From: Escherichia phage ES12
Direction: 5' to 3' (one strand)
Sequence record: MN508614.1
DNA: 64,000 nucleotides
Part shown: piece by piece, positions 53,373-59,361 of the stretch
Layout of the letters: every line of letters begins with the position of its first letter
Position numbering within the stretch: the stretch's first letter is position 1
Position numbers and translations under genes: made by a program
Notes under the pieces: model-generated
The model's database searches: none
Seen by the model: the letters and a program-made list of their open reading frames with translations, nothing else
Told to the model about the DNA's origin: nothing

Positions 53373-53549
53373 TTAAGTATTGTAAAACATTCGATGCAAT
53401 CGTTTATACTGTCGAATCATCTTTTTAGTAGGACGAGAATAGGTTCCTACGCAAGTGGTCATATGAGGGTCCGTAGAATGTCCTTTAATAAAAAGTTTCC
53501 AAACCTTACCGCCATTTAACTTTTCAGTATAAACCAATTCGGTTTTCAT
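53373..53549 (-). CDS. 58-aa ORF whose C-terminus duplicates the Pin C-terminus
   Basis: Own translation: MKTELVYTEKLNGGKVWKLFIKGHSTDPHMTTCVGTYSRPTKKMIRQYKRLHRMFYNT; the last 15 residues parallel Pin's ...QMIRQYKRLHQMFYNT. Confidence 0.4.
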   Translation of the reverse strand: MKTELVYTEKLNGGKVWKLFIKGHSTDPHMTTCVGTYSRPTKKMIRQYKRLHRMFYNT

Positions 53550-53585: not shown

Positions 53586-54071
53586 TCAAGTATTATAAAA
53601 CATTTGATGCAATCGCTTATATTGCCGAATCATTTGGTCAGAAAAAGAATTTTGTGTTTCAAGCCATTCAATATATTCTGCCGCAGCTTGCATCAGGTTA
53701 CCTTCATAATCATCAATATCTTTTTTCAATGCCACTTTAGCTAATGCATATGAAATACGTTCACCTTGAAAAGCGGCTTTAGGCTTCTGAACATCTTGGC
53801 TAGTTCTCTCTACAACTTCTTCAATTTCGCCATTTTCAACGGATTCAGTATTCCACAAGCACCAATACGTAATTGGCTTATCATAGATGTTAATAATCTT
53901 TCCGTCGGAAAGTTCAATTTCAATAATTCCAGTATCAGGCTCTATATCATCTTCACATTCTTTTGTAAGTTCACGAACTTTAAAGACAGTACCTGCACTA
54001 AGTTCCGGCCAGTAATTACATAGCCCTGTATCAACACGATTAATTCTAAACCACTTATCTACTGTAATCAT
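53586..54071 (-). CDS. pin: Pin (inhibitor of host Lon protease)
   Basis: 161 aa from MITVDKWFRINRVD...; length and locus between 49 and nrdC match T4 pin. Confidence 0.7.
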   Translation of the reverse strand: MITVDKWFRINRVDTGLCNYWPELSAGTVFKVRELTKECEDDIEPDTGIIEIELSDGKIINIYDKPITYWCLWNTESVENGEIEEVVERTSQDVQKPKAAFQGERISYALAKVALKKDIDDYEGNLMQAAAEYIEWLETQNSFSDQMIRQYKRLHQMFYNT

Positions 54072-54193
54072 GTCCCATCTCCATATCAATTAAGTCATTT
54101 ATCGTTGGTTCATTATATACTGTTTCTTCATCAGTGTAAACCGGTTCTTCCGGCTCTGGCTCTACAGTTTCCCATCTAGCCGCCCACCAGGGT

Positions 54194-54403
54194 TTAACCC
54201 CGAAGCTTATTAAGTTCTTCATAATCAATCCAGGATTCTAGTCCTGATGGCAAATCAGATTCAATTTCCCAAAGAAGCTCTTCAATTTTCTGAAGACGAT
54301 CTAGTTCTTCAGCTGGAATAGTAACCATTGATGGAGTTCTTGATACACTAATATCGTAAATCATATTTACCCCAGTTTGACCATGCAATCGCCGTATTTC
54401 CAC
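54194..54403 (-). CDS. Hypothetical acidic protein, 69 aa
   Basis: Minus-strand ORF between pin and nrdC. Confidence 0.5.
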   Translation of the reverse strand: MEIRRLHGQTGVNMIYDISVSRTPSMVTIPAEELDRLQKIEELLWEIESDLPSGLESWIDYEELNKLRG

Positions 54404-54582
54404 TTAGAAATAGACTTTTCGCCATTAGAATAATAAACTTCGAGTTTAGCACGGTTATTTTTAATTTGAATAACCTTGGCTGTCATTAAAGTTCCATACC
54501 CATAGTAAACTGCAACTTCATCACCTACATATACCGCGCTTCCGCGGTAATCATGGATATAATCAGTTCCTTCGAGCATCAT
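54367..54582 (-). CDS. Hypothetical protein, 71 aa
   Basis: Minus-strand ORF, 4-nt overlap with nrdC. Confidence 0.5.
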   Translation of the reverse strand: MMLEGTDYIHDYRGSAVYVGDEVAVYYGYGTLMTAKVIQIKNNRAKLEVYYSNGEKSISKWKYGDCMVKLG

Positions 54583-54843: not shown

Positions 54844-55086
54844 TTATTCCTTAATTCCTAATACTTGTTTAAAAGTCTCGTCGTAATCAAGACTTTGGCC
54901 TGTTTGTTCTTTATGTTTGTATATAATATCACTTACTTCTGATAGCATATTTTTATATGAACGAGTTAAAGCAGATTTAAGCACGCTGTATCTATCAGGA
55001 AATTTACCGTGTTCATTATAATAAGCTATTGCTAATTCACGGACTGCCTTTTCAGCAGCCTCCATATATTCTTTACGCTTTGTCAT
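54844..55086 (-). CDS. Hypothetical protein, about 80 aa
   Basis: Start placed at the internal ATG ([15 protein letters not shown]...) to avoid overlap with the upstream zinc-ribbon ORF. Confidence 0.45.
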
Positions 55087-55387
55087 TTTCTTCTCGGTCA
55101 AATCGGTGTTTACAATGGCGACATTTATAACGAAGATTACTAGTCTGCCAATGGACCAATTGCACCTGTTCAGTTCCACATTCAGGGCAATTAGGAACGT
55201 TTTTAGAAGCACGTTCGCGGCGTTCAACCATGACCGTTACAGAATCCCAATTAATAGGGCTGCTATAATCATCACAACCATGAATCTTTCCACGCATTTC
55301 CAAATCGTCTTCTTCACCGGCCATAATAATTTTAATTAAACTGGAATTACTTGAAGCTGCAATGTCTTCTAATAGACGCTTTTTCAT
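55073..55387 (-). CDS. Zinc-ribbon protein, 104 aa
   Basis: C-terminal CPECG...CRHCKH four-Cys ribbon, acidic N-terminus. Confidence 0.55.
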
Positions 55388-56313
55388 TTCAATACCTCAA
55401 TAGCATTACGTAAACCATTTGCTTTTGCATTAAGAGCTTTTAACAATTTGGTGTGTTCTGCAATTTGGGCTTCAACTTCAATCAAACGAGCATTGAGATA
55501 TTCGCGTTCTTCACTCAGATTATCAGCCTTTTCTGCTTTAGGTTCTTTTACAACTTGCTTATATGTATTAGGGTTCTTCAGTTTAATTAGAATGCGTGAA
55601 CTGTACAGCATTGAACCATTATCTTCGGTTTCGTCATACATTTCCACTACGTCCATCATCTCCACCATCGTGCAGAGTTTATAAGACAACGAACGAATAA
55701 TTTTGTTGTGCTTATTAATTTCTCTAGCTGTCATGGTGCCGAGATTACGTGAGTAATAATAAGGAACCTGGATATTAATTAATACTGATGAACCACCTGG
55801 CTTGTGTGTTACTTCATCAGCAATAACCCAATCCTTAACATGAACTGTATTTGTACGGTCATCGCCCGCGGTAAATAGTTTACGAGCATGCTTAAAAAGC
55901 ATATTCACTTGGTCATTGAATTGACAAGCGAATTTATCAGCAAATTTAGTTTCGGGAATGGTAGATAACCAATCAGCCAAATGAGTCTTTTTAACATCGT
56001 TAACAATAGTAAATTCAACCAAATCGGTTATAGATGTCTCAGATTTAATGAAGCTCGGCTTCATAAAGTTTTTAATGTTATCGCGAGCTACAGTAGAAGA
56101 TAACATACGAGAACGTTTAAACCATTCAAGCAAATTGCCTAACGAATGAGAATAAGCGTTTTGAGTATCTTTACAGATATGATTTTCCTGGCCAACATAT
56201 TGAAGGAAATCACGAAGAATATTATTGATTACTGCTCTGTGTCCTATCTGATAATTACGATGTTTAGTAATAAGACTGTCAAAATAATCAATATAATGTT
56301 TACGAGTTTTCAT
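55384..56313 (-). CDS. Paralogue A of a four-member tandem family with coiled-coil C-terminus, 309 aa
   Basis: Shares a central helix (MLFKHARKL) with the next three ORFs; heptad-like tail ...EEREYLNARLIEVEAQIAEHTKLLKALNAKANGL. Confidence 0.6.
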   Translation of the reverse strand: MKTRKHYIDYFDSLITKHRNYQIGHRAVINNILRDFLQYVGQENHICKDTQNAYSHSLGNLLEWFKRSRMLSSTVARDNIKNFMKPSFIKSETSITDLVEFTIVNDVKKTHLADWLSTIPETKFADKFACQFNDQVNMLFKHARKLFTAGDDRTNTVHVKDWVIADEVTHKPGGSSVLINIQVPYYYSRNLGTMTAREINKHNKIIRSLSYKLCTMVEMMDVVEMYDETEDNGSMLYSSRILIKLKNPNTYKQVVKEPKAEKADNLSEEREYLNARLIEVEAQIAEHTKLLKALNAKANGLRNAIEVLK

Positions 56314-56365
56314 GTTCTTCTCACTTGGTTAATGATTTATACTCCGAGCCATCCTTGGCTTTAAA

Positions 56366-57367
56366 TTACTTAATTAACTGTAAAGCTTGTTCAAGACGAT
56401 CCAGGCGATTAACAGATTCTTCCCAAATCCTTTTAGCCTGCTCATATTCTTTCTGCGCTTTATTAGAAATTTCTAGAACTTCTTTATAAGCTTTTTCTAG
56501 TGCAATAACTTCTGGACGAATTTCTACCGGTTCAGGTGAATCATCAAGACATTCCATTAGTTCCTCAAGGGTAGTTTCTTCTTTAGGAGTATTCACAATT
56601 TCATCACATTTTTGTTGGTAAATTTCTTTACTAGTAGGTGAATAAGTACATTTCACTTCACGAAGACTAACTACAATTTTATATCCTTCCCAACCGCATA
56701 TATTCTTAAAAGGATATGTATGAATATTTTCTACTGTTTCCATACAAAGTAATGCGGTCTCTAATTGACGAGTTATAGTGCTAGCAATTGAGAAAAATTT
56801 ATTAATGTTCTTTTGGTTAGTTTCTGGTGTAAAAAATCCATAATTCACAAAAATAGCTACTTTATTTTTATCAAGTTCATATTCTTTTATGATAATCATA
56901 TCAGAAGCCAAAGGATGAATTTGACGATAATCGCCATAACATAATTTAGAAGCTGATTTTAGAATTTGCTTCTTGAAAAGTCTGAAATTACTAATCCAAC
57001 GACGAGTAAAAATATTCTCAGGGTCTTCTTTATTATTGAGATGATAAGAATTAACATCACCGAACCAATTATATCCTACTACATCTTTAGTTCGTTTAAT
57101 TTCTTTCCCAAAATTACCAAGAATATCCCGATTAACCAAATATGAAAGAAGACGAGACTCTTTAAAGGTTTTCTTGATAACATCTTTATCTACACGGCTA
57201 GAAATTTTACGAATTTCATGAATAAATTTAGTAGAAGAAACAATACTTGCATCAACACTATTGAGCCATTGATTGATAATAGAAAGAACGATATTTTGAC
57301 CAAACATCGGTATAGCTTTATCATCAATAACGCTATTGAATGATTTGATATATTCGTTACGAGTCAT
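56366..57367 (-). CDS. Paralogue B of the four-member tandem family, about 333 aa
   Basis: Start at MTRNEYIKSF with GAGGAG SD; central FRLFKKQILKSASKL helix; coiled-coil tail. Confidence 0.6.
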   Translation of the reverse strand: MTRNEYIKSFNSVIDDKAIPMFGQNIVLSIINQWLNSVDASIVSSTKFIHEIRKISSRVDKDVIKKTFKESRLLSYLVNRDILGNFGKEIKRTKDVVGYNWFGDVNSYHLNNKEDPENIFTRRWISNFRLFKKQILKSASKLCYGDYRQIHPLASDMIIIKEYELDKNKVAIFVNYGFFTPETNQKNINKFFSIASTITRQLETALLCMETVENIHTYPFKNICGWEGYKIVVSLREVKCTYSPTSKEIYQQKCDEIVNTPKEETTLEELMECLDDSPEPVEIRPEVIALEKAYKEVLEISNKAQKEYEQAKRIWEESVNRLDRLEQALQLIK

Positions 57368-57389
57368 AATAATCTCCTCAGTAGAAAGT

Positions 57390-57426
57390 AAGAACATTAT
57401 ACCACATCCTTGTGGTAAAGTAAACT
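57390..57426 (-). promoter_or_regulatory. Early sigma70 promoter between paralogues C and B
   Basis: Minus-strand GTTTAC-(18)-TGgTATAAT, near-identical to the copy at 13180-13212. Confidence 0.5.
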
Positions 57427-58444
57427 AGTTCAGTGCATTTAATGCATTGTTCAGTTTAGAACGTTGCTTCGTGAGATTTTTGACTTTTTCTTGTGCTTTT
57501 TCTAGCATCTTTTCAGCTTCTAACACTTCATTGGTCGCTTTAACGAGTTCATCATCTACTGCCTTAAGGGACTTCTCAATCGCATCCGCGTGCCATTTTT
57601 CAACAGGTTTAAGACTCGGATTTTCAATAGGAAGAAAATTCACTTTATTGAATTTCCATGCATCTTTATTACCTGAACTATACATCCAAAATTTAGGATC
57701 ATTTGACGAGTAATTAGATAAATTTAAGGTATCTTGTACTTCCTGCTTTTTCTCTTGTGTAACTTCGTCCTTTCTCAAAAAATCGTATTTAAATGAAACG
57801 ATCATATCAAGTTCATATGTTGTTGTGTCTAATTTAAATCGTTCGAAATGCTGTGAAATCTTAGACTGAACTGCAGCAACAACATCCATATACTTAAATG
57901 CTTCTGTCAGCTGTGATTTAAGGCATTCACAAATTGAAAGAGAATTTTTTGTATTAGGTTTAAAGCTAATTCGTGCAGTTCTATTATTTTCTTTTAATGG
58001 TCTTACTTCCATCTGAAGAGTATAACCATCAAATTTCAGATTCTTTAAGTTAATATCAGAGCCTTTTAATCGACTAGCCGTCGACAAAATTTGCTTTAAT
58101 TGTTTACGGAATAGAGCAATAAATCTCCACTCAAGACGATAATGATTTGGATTAAAAAATCCAGATGATAAATCGACCTTACTCTGACCAACACCTTGAA
58201 CAAACAGAGGATTTTTATAATCAATAGTTTTACAGAAATCGGTGAGCTGCTCACGAGCAGTCATTTGTGTAATATACCCCGCTTTACTAAAATGACGTAA
58301 CCATTCACTGCTATTCATATATTTAAAGTGAATATCACGATTAACTTTATCAGGGTCTAAATTATTTTCACACAAAAATGTCATAACATCACGAGTATAG
58401 CTGGCATTACGAACCATATCTTCAATTTGAGAACGAGTTTTCAT
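57425..58444 (-). CDS. Paralogue C of the four-member tandem family, 339 aa
   Basis: Central FIALFRKQLKQILSTASRLK helix; tail ...ATNEVLEAEKMLEKAQEKVKNLTKQRSKLNNALNALN. Confidence 0.6.
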   Translation of the reverse strand: MKTRSQIEDMVRNASYTRDVMTFLCENNLDPDKVNRDIHFKYMNSSEWLRHFSKAGYITQMTAREQLTDFCKTIDYKNPLFVQGVGQSKVDLSSGFFNPNHYRLEWRFIALFRKQLKQILSTASRLKGSDINLKNLKFDGYTLQMEVRPLKENNRTARISFKPNTKNSLSICECLKSQLTEAFKYMDVVAAVQSKISQHFERFKLDTTTYELDMIVSFKYDFLRKDEVTQEKKQEVQDTLNLSNYSSNDPKFWMYSSGNKDAWKFNKVNFLPIENPSLKPVEKWHADAIEKSLKAVDDELVKATNEVLEAEKMLEKAQEKVKNLTKQRSKLNNALNALN

Positions 58445-58452
58445 GGTGTTCC

Positions 58453-59361
58453 TTAAGATTTAAGTAAATCAACAATTTTAATTAACTTTTCACGCTCAGA
58501 TTTAGCTTTACTACTCAATCCAGATAGTCTGAAAATTTCATCATCATATTGTTGAATAGAAATATTCAGCTCTTCAATTTGCTCATTAAAATAATCAATT
58601 TGCTCAGAATGTTTTTCGTTACTACGAACTGGTACAGGTTTTGTAGGTAATTTAGATGAACTGGATTCATCCGGGCGATAAATTAAAATACAACTTGAAC
58701 CAATTGGACATTTTGCACCAGATGAATATTCTAACGTTCCAGCTTCTTTTAAAACTTCAAAAGCTAAACAGAGATGATGCCCCATATTAACATAATCTGT
58801 AGAGCGAGCTCTGATATAATAATCATCGCCGCGAATACTAAATTTAAAGCATTTAAGGTCTTCTGTATTATTGGTCTTAAAAATCATTTGTTTATCTAGA
58901 CCTTTAGCTAATCGAGCGCCTAATGCTAATAATCGTCGTTGATTTTCCCACAAATCTGCGATCATTTGGTCAAATGATAATTTCGGCATTAATCGACCAT
59001 AAAGGTCATATCCTTTATTATAATTGCGAAGGATTTCACTCGCATTAATACGAGACAACGCTCCAATTTTATTAAGGGCTTTCATGATGCGATTAGATAA
59101 ACCCATTCCAGACCCGTTTGTTCGTTGTAAATGTTTATCTAATCCAAACCCAATATCAACTTTAAATTTATCTAAAATTTCAGCATGAACATCTCTGTCA
59201 ATAACATTCAAATCCAAAGTTGGGTTAAATCTATGAAAAAATTTATCTGGCTCTCCACGACGAAGTACAGTCCATTCATTCAATTTTTTATTAACTAAAG
59301 ATTTAATTACTGCATTGACATTATTAATTACTACTGACATATTTTCCTCACTCAATTTCAA
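58453..59361 (-). CDS. Paralogue D of the four-member tandem family, 302 aa
   Basis: Central RRLLALGARLAKGL helix; tail ...EQIEELNISIQQYDDEIFRL...EREKLIKIVDLLKS. Confidence 0.6.
   Translation of the reverse strand: MKLSEENMSVVINNVNAVIKSLVNKKLNEWTVLRRGEPDKFFHRFNPTLDLNVIDRDVHAEILDKFKVDIGFGLDKHLQRTNGSGMGLSNRIMKALNKIGALSRINASEILRNYNKGYDLYGRLMPKLSFDQMIADLWENQRRLLALGARLAKGLDKQMIFKTNNTEDLKCFKFSIRGDDYYIRARSTDYVNMGHHLCLAFEVLKEAGTLEYSSGAKCPIGSSCILIYRPDESSSSKLPTKPVPVRSNEKHSEQIDYFNEQIEELNISIQQYDDEIFRLSGLSSKAKSEREKLIKIVDLLKS

Follow-up and report, generated by a model that had tools for sequence, protein, structure and literature searches.

The tandem genes nrdC.3 to nrdC.6 of a T4-like phage as probable diverged copies of one accessory gene

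What are the four consecutive genes that lie between nrdC.2 and nrdC.7 in Escherichia phage ES12, and are they copies of one another? In the 64,000-nucleotide stretch of this genome analysed here (sequence record MN508614.1, hereafter the window), four minus-strand open reading frames (ORFs) stand in a row and fill positions 55384-59361. An initial annotation, made from the sequence alone, had described them as a tandem paralogous family with a common basic helix, coiled-coil tails and differing N-terminal halves, and had guessed at a counter-defence role under diversifying selection. The window belongs to a Tequatrovirus; in the 5 kb around the four genes, its identity is 100% with Escherichia phage ES26 and 96-97% with many T4-type phages. 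By synteny and identity, we assign the genes, here called A, B, C and D, as orthologues of T4 nrdC.3, nrdC.4, nrdC.5 and nrdC.6, respectively. The gene order from nrdC.2 to nrdC.7 is that of the T4 annotation. In a local comparison B, C and D are 98%, 94% and 97% identical to their T4 counterparts, while A is 60-61% identical to T4 nrdC.3, 78% identical to the Mosigvirus copy and 96-99% identical to other Tequatrovirus copies. As detailed below, we consider it probable that the four genes are diverged copies of one accessory gene, with nrdC.5 acting against the defence protein Dsr1 and the paralogues being the same kind of protein retargeted.

The relationship between A and B is visible in direct comparison (BLASTP, E 1.6e-7 over 270 residues), and their family profiles, drawn from four genera, align with an hhalign probability of 97.9%. 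By these measures A and B are clear paralogues, which is already implicit in the databases, where both belong to one PHROG (phrog_1435) and one Pfam family (Phage_T4_Y04OP). The joint A/B profile in turn matches the profile of C (DUF7235) with 95.9% probability (E 5e-9) over 237 collinear columns. Compared by part, the core alone yields 91.8% and the tail alone 94.8%; since the core alone also matches, the link between A/B and C is not a coiled-coil artefact. Two further proteins connect these families. P0204, a bridging metagenome protein, belongs to the Y04OP family and carries an nrdC.5-type tail (E 3e-7), and Mineola_080, the product of a single 326-aa gene at the syntenic position in Klebsiella phage Mineola, reaches about 91% with both the A/B and the C profiles. 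An exhaustive HMMER search with the C profile did not recover the A, B or D families; the one exception was the tail of P0204. Taken together, the sequence comparisons make a strong case for the membership of A, B and C, and the paralogous family proposed in the initial annotation stands firmly for these three genes, whereas for nrdC.6 it is probable on weaker evidence. nrdC.8 was considered as a fifth member; it has a coiled-coil-like C-terminus, yet its profile match of 0.2-0.8% marks it as unrelated.

For D, BLASTP comparisons with A, B and C gave no significant match. At the level of profiles, the alignment of A/B with D reaches 42% probability (E 2.6e-4); its 210 columns are collinear, and three landmarks coincide in it: the SR..L..NF/Y helix, the basic helix and the closing ...LLK. 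A superfamily profile of A, B and C raises this value to 67.5% (E 5e-5), spanning the SR helix to the basic helix, while the control families nrdC.7, nrdC.8 and nrdC.10 give 0.1-0.8% against the same profiles. Structural comparison points in the same direction. In Foldseek searches of BFVD, the models of both C and D matched A0A2Z4QAR2, the Mineola protein (E 1e-6 for C, 1.7e-3 for D), and the D model also matched proteins of about 300-335 aa from Pectobacterium, Enterobacter and Acinetobacter T4-like phages (E 3e-6 to 2.5e-4). One of these matches, Acj9p122 of Acinetobacter phage Acj9, sits between gene 49 and nrdC.10 and thus in the syntenic neighbourhood; no link to it was found by sequence, for which it is too diverged. 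Alternatively, only nrdC.3, nrdC.4 and nrdC.5 could be related, nrdC.6 being an unrelated gene whose coiled-coil end and basic amphipathic helix arose convergently. This would fit the direct hhalign comparison of C with D (0.9%, not significant), the E value of 0.009 for the core-only comparison of A/B with D, the lack of significance in tail-only comparisons with D, and the separate families that D forms in Pfam and PHROGs. We nevertheless judge convergence to be unlikely, given that the A/B-D match is collinear with all three landmarks in register, that the superfamily profile separates D clearly from the controls (0.2-0.3%), that the independent models of C and D have an identical order of secondary-structure elements, and that the Foldseek matches of D include both the syntenic Acj9p122 and a Mineola protein homologous to A/B and C. 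It is thus quite probable that D belongs to the family.

The four proteins probably have a common build, with the same parts in the same order. An N-terminal part would comprise a variable segment, a conserved helix (SR..A...L..NF/Y) and a small beta unit; it would be followed by a basic broken helix pair and a two-layer alpha/beta sandwich (beta-beta, helix, beta-beta), and the C-terminal part would consist of a disordered, indel-rich linker and a coiled-coil helix of about 50 residues. AlphaFold2 models were examined for C (pLDDT, the predicted local distance difference test, 68.6; core 80-94) and D (pLDDT 77.3) and compared by the order of their elements. Both run from a helix and a small beta unit through a broken helix pair, a beta hairpin, a helix and a second beta hairpin to the linker and the C-terminal helix, the linker being disordered and the C-terminal helix long in either model.

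The basic helix is the best-conserved segment across the families, and the central segments are basic in all four proteins (isoelectric point, pI, 9.2-10.0). The motifs on which the initial annotation had based the common helix are indeed placed in register by hhalign: RRWISNFRLFKKQILKSASKL of nrdC.4 aligns with EWRFIALFRKQLKQILSTASRL of nrdC.5, and nrdC.3/nrdC.4 align with NQRRLLALGARLAKG of nrdC.6. In C, the model places helices at residues 104-114 and 116-126 (pLDDT 83-92), and the segment shows near-zero entropy across 51 Tequatrovirus cluster representatives; R113, K117 and R125 are invariant. The corresponding helices, likewise confident in the D model, span residues 123-132 and 134-144; N133, Q134, R136 and R143 are invariant. 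Across the same 51 representatives, the variation of nrdC.5 is concentrated at residues 1-55 and 181-280, whereas residues 61-180 and the tail are nearly fixed. The N-termini are the more variable ends, as had been noted; however, those of A, B and C do not differ over whole halves, since these three have a common M(K)TR start and are collinear from about residue 57-73 onward.

Heptad-like tails, likewise proposed initially, were confirmed for all four proteins. In the last 49 residues of each, 83-93% of the a/d positions are hydrophobic, compared to 17-33% elsewhere (shuffle p <= 0.003). The tail of C is modelled as one 58-residue helix (residues 281-338, pLDDT 84-93), that of D as two helices (residues 245-271 and 277-294). 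A protein of 173 aa encoded on an 803-bp ENA contig (P0089) combines an unrelated N-terminal region of 120 residues with the NrdC.5 coiled-coil tail at 98% identity, which suggests that the tail moves as a module. As a separate observation, the T4 reference nrdC.6 (NC_000866 8067-8894, compared with window 58456-58570) carries a single-base deletion that changes CTGAATATT to CTG-ATATT, whereby the last ~37 codons are frameshifted and the coiled-coil tail is lost. In the T4 annotation of the HIDEN-SEQ study, nrdC.6 is full length (891 nt); therefore the deletion in the reference is either polymorphic between strains or an early sequencing error.

With respect to function, published work on T4 offers one anchor. 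A T4 deletion clone is unable to grow on ECOR17 due to the Sir2-domain defence protein Dsr1 (Srikant, Guegler & Laub, eLife 2022, PMC9391042), and T4 nrdC.5 alone, provided in trans, rescues the deletion clone on MG1655 carrying dsr1 (PMC9391042). The ~6% of residues at which C departs from T4 NrdC.5 lie mostly in the linker and N-terminus. A 2026 preprint describes phage major capsid proteins as being recognised by the Dsr1 sensor domain. Among the neighbouring genes, published anti-defence roles exist for nrdC.1, which inhibits Septu, and for gp49.2, which inhibits OLD. We found no function named in the literature for nrdC.3, nrdC.4 or nrdC.6, no statement relating them to nrdC.5, and no published mechanism for NrdC.5. 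Transposon mapping in T4 scored nrdC.3, nrdC.4, nrdC.5 and nrdC.6 as non-essential (HIDEN-SEQ). A housekeeping role of the four genes, the alternative by which the initial annotation would have been refuted, is ruled out by this non-essentiality.

Our own searches of Pfam, NCBIfam and PADLOC found no family of enzymes, defence proteins or nucleic-acid binders for any of the four; what they returned for A, B and D was sub-threshold noise only (XerD N-terminus, PHL, BrxC and coiled-coil families). A sequence search of the PDB likewise gave only coiled-coil noise and no relative with a solved structure. The nrdC.5 family is narrow, with 15 representatives in 1.84 billion proteins, all of them phage or phage-contaminated records, and a scan of IMG/VR with the C alignment returned 5 near-identical loci only. 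The counter-defence guess of the initial annotation is upheld by experiment for T4 nrdC.5 (PMC9391042), while for nrdC.3, nrdC.4 and nrdC.6 we infer it, which makes these three good candidates for anti-immunity factors.

The mechanism that we propose would start from an ancestral accessory gene, which in many T4-like phages (Straboviridae) has its place between gene 49/nrdC and nrdC.10. One descendant, NrdC.5, neutralises Dsr1, a Sir2-family abortive-infection protein, as demonstrated for the T4 orthologue. NrdC.5 may do so as a non-enzymatic binder, presumably oligomerised, like other proteins of its type, by the coiled coil. The conserved basic helix and the sandwich would form a common scaffold on which the variable flanks set target specificity, and the core and flanks of NrdC.5 would contact Dsr1 ahead of NAD+ depletion by Dsr1. 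The products of nrdC.3, nrdC.4 and nrdC.6 could then be aimed at other host immune proteins or at other Dsr1 variants.

Several points weigh against this reading. Experimental support exists for nrdC.5 only, and for the T4 allele rather than the window allele; how the protein binds, in what oligomeric state and to which surface of Dsr1 is conjectural throughout. A host-comparison table of HIDEN-SEQ, in the portion that lists these genes, reports no significant effect for nrdC.3-nrdC.6. As described below, dN/dS is < 1 in all four genes, and an arms-race signature is not demonstrated. Finally, besides the failed direct comparison with C, the place of D depends on a weak A/B-D profile match and on models of moderate confidence (pLDDT 69 and 77).

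Other explanations of the cluster have to be weighed against the same data. The four proteins might be subunits of one hetero-oligomer, paired by their tails and serving a single function such as the block of Dsr1. Tail homology linking A/B to C, heptads in all four proteins, adjacent genes on the same strand and natural tail swaps between family members (P0204, P0089) are all compatible with such a complex. Yet nrdC.5 expressed alone rescues the deletion mutant (PMC9391042), B is absent or truncated in natural phages that retain A, C or D and is found in fewer phage records (553) than A (653) or C (619), the number of copies ranges from 1 to 4 across genera, and the T4 reference nrdC.6 lacks the tail; a common complex is thus improbable. 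Similarly, the proteins could be early host-takeover factors whose basic helix pair binds DNA, RNA or RNA polymerase, the anti-Dsr1 effect being indirect. The high pI of the central segments (9.2-10), their conserved Arg and Lys residues and the early-promoter match would agree with this. We give this explanation little credence, however, since a match to a nucleic-acid-binding family is absent, the genes are dispensable on laboratory hosts in the available HIDEN-SEQ data and the rescue is specific to dsr1 (PMC9391042).

A further possibility, to which we assign a similarly low probability, is that the alpha/beta core mimics a virion protein of the tail terminator/completion type, made early and oligomeric via the coiled coil. 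Such a decoy would occupy repeat-type sensor domains (that of Dsr1, or Avs-like ones in the case of the paralogues) before the late structural proteins appear, and the tandem family would constitute a panel of decoys, one per sensor. That the four proteins are themselves late essential virion components of the tail terminator type was rejected, on account of the early-type promoter match in the cluster and of the non-essentiality of all four genes in T4 according to the HIDEN-SEQ mapping data. On balance we favour the reading in which the four genes are diverged copies of one accessory gene with different targets.

Among phages, Tequatrovirus genomes have 4 copies, Mosigvirus 3 (D-like, C-like and A-like), and Dhakavirus and Gaprivervirus 3 each (D-like, C-like and B-like), while one recognisable copy is present in Jiaodavirus and one in Acinetobacter phage Acj9. 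Single-copy relatives occur in T4-like phages of Klebsiella, Acinetobacter, Erwinia, Pectobacterium and Enterobacter. A duplication of A and B in situ is doubtful, as the gene nearest to A is the sole Y04OP-type copy in Mosigvirus, and that nearest to B the sole copy in Dhakavirus and Gaprivervirus; an ancient duplication with differential loss and a recombinational acquisition are equally possible origins.

To address the diversifying selection postulated in the initial annotation, we computed gene-wide ratios of nonsynonymous to synonymous substitution rates (dN/dS) against six Tequatrovirus genomes. The values are 0.13-0.43 for A, about 0.2 for B, 0.12-0.18 for C and 0.04-0.17 for D, compared to mostly 0-0.1 (up to 0.14) for gene 49, nrdC, nrdC.10 and nrdC.11. 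Constraint on nrdC.3-nrdC.6 is relaxed relative to these neighbours; positive selection across whole genes is excluded, as dN/dS is < 1 in every gene, and the postulate was therefore not borne out. Exchange of ancient allele classes through recombination, along with gene loss, truncation and chimeras, describes the variation better. This is a pattern that fits dispensable, exchangeable accessory genes; it is compatible with a counter-defence role and is no proof of diversifying selection. For instance, A occurs in two allele classes that are ~60% identical (synonymous divergence dS ~0.9), the class of the window being nearer to the Mosigvirus gene (78%) than to T4. B is truncated in L007, and in contigs L003 and L004 B is deleted and C broken.

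Several observations on individual loci can be added. Positions 55073-56313 of the window (nrdC.2 and nrdC.3) form an allele-replacement hotspot: against other Tequatrovirus genomes, nrdC.2 is 65-95% and nrdC.3 either about 60% or 96-99% identical, while flanking genes are mostly > 90% identical, with the exception of nrdC.4, which is truncated in one of the compared genomes and deleted in another. In the metagenomic Tequatrovirus contigs L003 (6001-6900) and L004 (2362-3261), residues 146-273 of nrdC.5 are fused to residues 137-309 of nrdC.3 (P0056), nrdC.4 is missing, and what is left of the 5' end of nrdC.5 forms a separate ORF of 115 codons. Because the junction joins non-equivalent positions, this fusion looks like an illegitimate deletion. 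In the T4-like phages of Klebsiella the locus is dimorphic as well: gene 080 of Mineola (L019 12446-13426), its single family member, has just 43-45% identity to the corresponding gene of some 140 further Jiaodavirus genomes. Dhakavirus, Gaprivervirus and one metagenomic contig have a conserved ORF of ~70 aa that separates the nrdC.6-like gene from the nrdC.5-like one (L010 5763-5978, L011 5748-5951, L002 7133-7348, and equivalents); the window lacks this ORF.

The features of the window are collected in Table 1. The initial sizes of A, B and C (309, about 333 and 339 aa) were retained, and that of D was revised. For B, the GAGGAG Shine-Dalgarno sequence points to the ATG at 57367 downstream of it as the true start; a 343-aa reading is disfavoured because its start would fall within the promoter -10 element. 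The ORF of D reaches upstream to a TTG at 59361 (302 aa). Its start is most likely the ATG at 59340, because the phrog_2257 profile and all homologues begin there. The match of D to phrog_2257 (E 2e-152) begins at residue 8, and C matches PF23882 over its full length with 410 bits (E 7.7e-123; gathering threshold 30 bits). PF26897 (Y04OP) is a precomputed match on close homologues of A and B, which are themselves matched via phrog_1435, and PF26899 (Y05B) is carried by all 109 homologues of D and by P0134, which is 98% identical to D. The early promoter noted initially between B and C was found again by promoter scan and sequence reading as a consensus match only, and from it early expression of nrdC.3-nrdC.6 can be predicted; in total, promoter-like sites in the region are no more numerous than in shuffled sequence.

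Table 1. Genes and sequence features of the nrdC.3-nrdC.6 cluster in the window
Feature	Position	Strand	Remarks
A, nrdC.3 orthologue	55384-56313	minus	309 aa; Pfam Phage_T4_Y04OP / phrog_1435, E 1e-115
Basic helix of A	55864-55932	minus	residues 128-150; aligns with B helix
Coiled-coil tail of A	55387-55533	minus	last 49 aa; heptad p = 0.0025
B, nrdC.4 orthologue	56366-57367	minus	333 aa; Pfam Phage_T4_Y04OP / phrog_1435, E 5e-168
Basic helix of B	56933-57004	minus	residues 122-145; hhalign register with C helix
Coiled-coil tail of B	56369-56515	minus	last 49 aa; heptad p = 0.0005
Promoter match GTTTACT-N17-TGgTATAAT	57424-57396	minus	between nrdC.5 and nrdC.4; T4-early-type sigma-70, TG extension
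C, nrdC.5 orthologue	57425-58444	minus	339 aa; Pfam DUF7235 (PF23882)
Basic helix pair of C	58061-58132	minus	residues 105-128, EWRFIALFRKQLKQILSTASRLKG
Coiled-coil tail of C	57428-57574	minus	last 49 aa; heptad p < 0.0005
D, nrdC.6 orthologue	58453-59340	minus	295 aa from ATG; Pfam Phage_T4_Y05B / phrog_2257
Basic helix of D	58900-58959	minus	residues 128-147, ADLWENQRRLLALGARLAKG; 42-67% probability to A/B/C helix
Coiled-coil tail of D	58456-58602	minus	last 49 aa; heptad p = 0.0005

The surroundings of the cluster also differ in part from T4. By tblastn, the window retains 49.1, pin, nrdC.1 and nrdC.2, and homologues of T4 49.2 and 49.3 were not found in it; positions 54055-54582 instead carry two short ORFs (69 and 71 aa). 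Downstream of pin, an ORF of 58 aa has ...MIRQYKRLHRMFYNT as its C-terminal end; these 15 residues are nearly those with which pin closes, ...MIRQYKRLHQMFYNT (53373-53549 and 53586-54089), which suggests a partial duplication of the 3' end of pin. About 6 kb of the T4 genome is now known to contain three different inhibitors (49.2, nrdC.1 and nrdC.5), which adds to the view of the gene 49-nrdC.11 block as an anti-defence island, present in the window with nrdC.1 and nrdC.5 and without 49.2.

In conclusion, the observation made in the initial annotation is real, and the superfamily was partly known already, the function of nrdC.5 having been published before. What this analysis contributes is a single scaffold that unites Y04OP with DUF7235 and, probably, Y05B; how widely this scaffold occurs among T4-like phages; and which of its parts are fixed and which vary. 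Provided that all four genes derive from one scaffold, what NrdC.5 does to Dsr1 would serve as a template for the other three T4 genes and for the relatives present as single copies in T4-like phages of Klebsiella, Acinetobacter, Erwinia and Pectobacterium. The parts that vary, and that probably determine specificity, are the N-terminus, the linker and the last hairpin; the basic helix and tail are fixed. This yields concrete candidate host-range determinants in therapy phages.

The closest known system is T4 NrdC.5 itself (UniProt Y05A_BPT4; DUF7235), which C resembles in length and position with 94% amino-acid identity; the anti-Dsr1 activity belongs to the T4 allele (PMC9391042), whereas the window allele is known from its sequence. 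The databases keep three separate, functionally uncharacterised families (Pfam PF26897 and PF26899; PHROGs 1435, 2351 and 2257); our comparison merges A/B with C (96% probability) and adds D tentatively. With respect to their fold, the nrdC.3-6 proteins would be simple alpha/beta sandwiches, which also match RNA polymerase alpha-type domains and designed proteins. To tail terminator/completion proteins (lambda gpU, T5 p142, SPP1 gp17-like, DUF3168) they show no sequence similarity, and unlike these they possess extra N-terminal, linker and coiled-coil parts. By role only, they can be likened to DSAD1 (the SPbeta anti-DSR2 protein), Ocr, TifA, Dmd and AdfA, each an early, dispensable inhibitor of one abortive-infection or NADase defence, sited, as nrdC.3-6 are, in a genomic island of such genes. 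Unlike these inhibitors, the nrdC.3-6 proteins are larger (about 300 aa), coiled-coil-tailed and form a tandem family.

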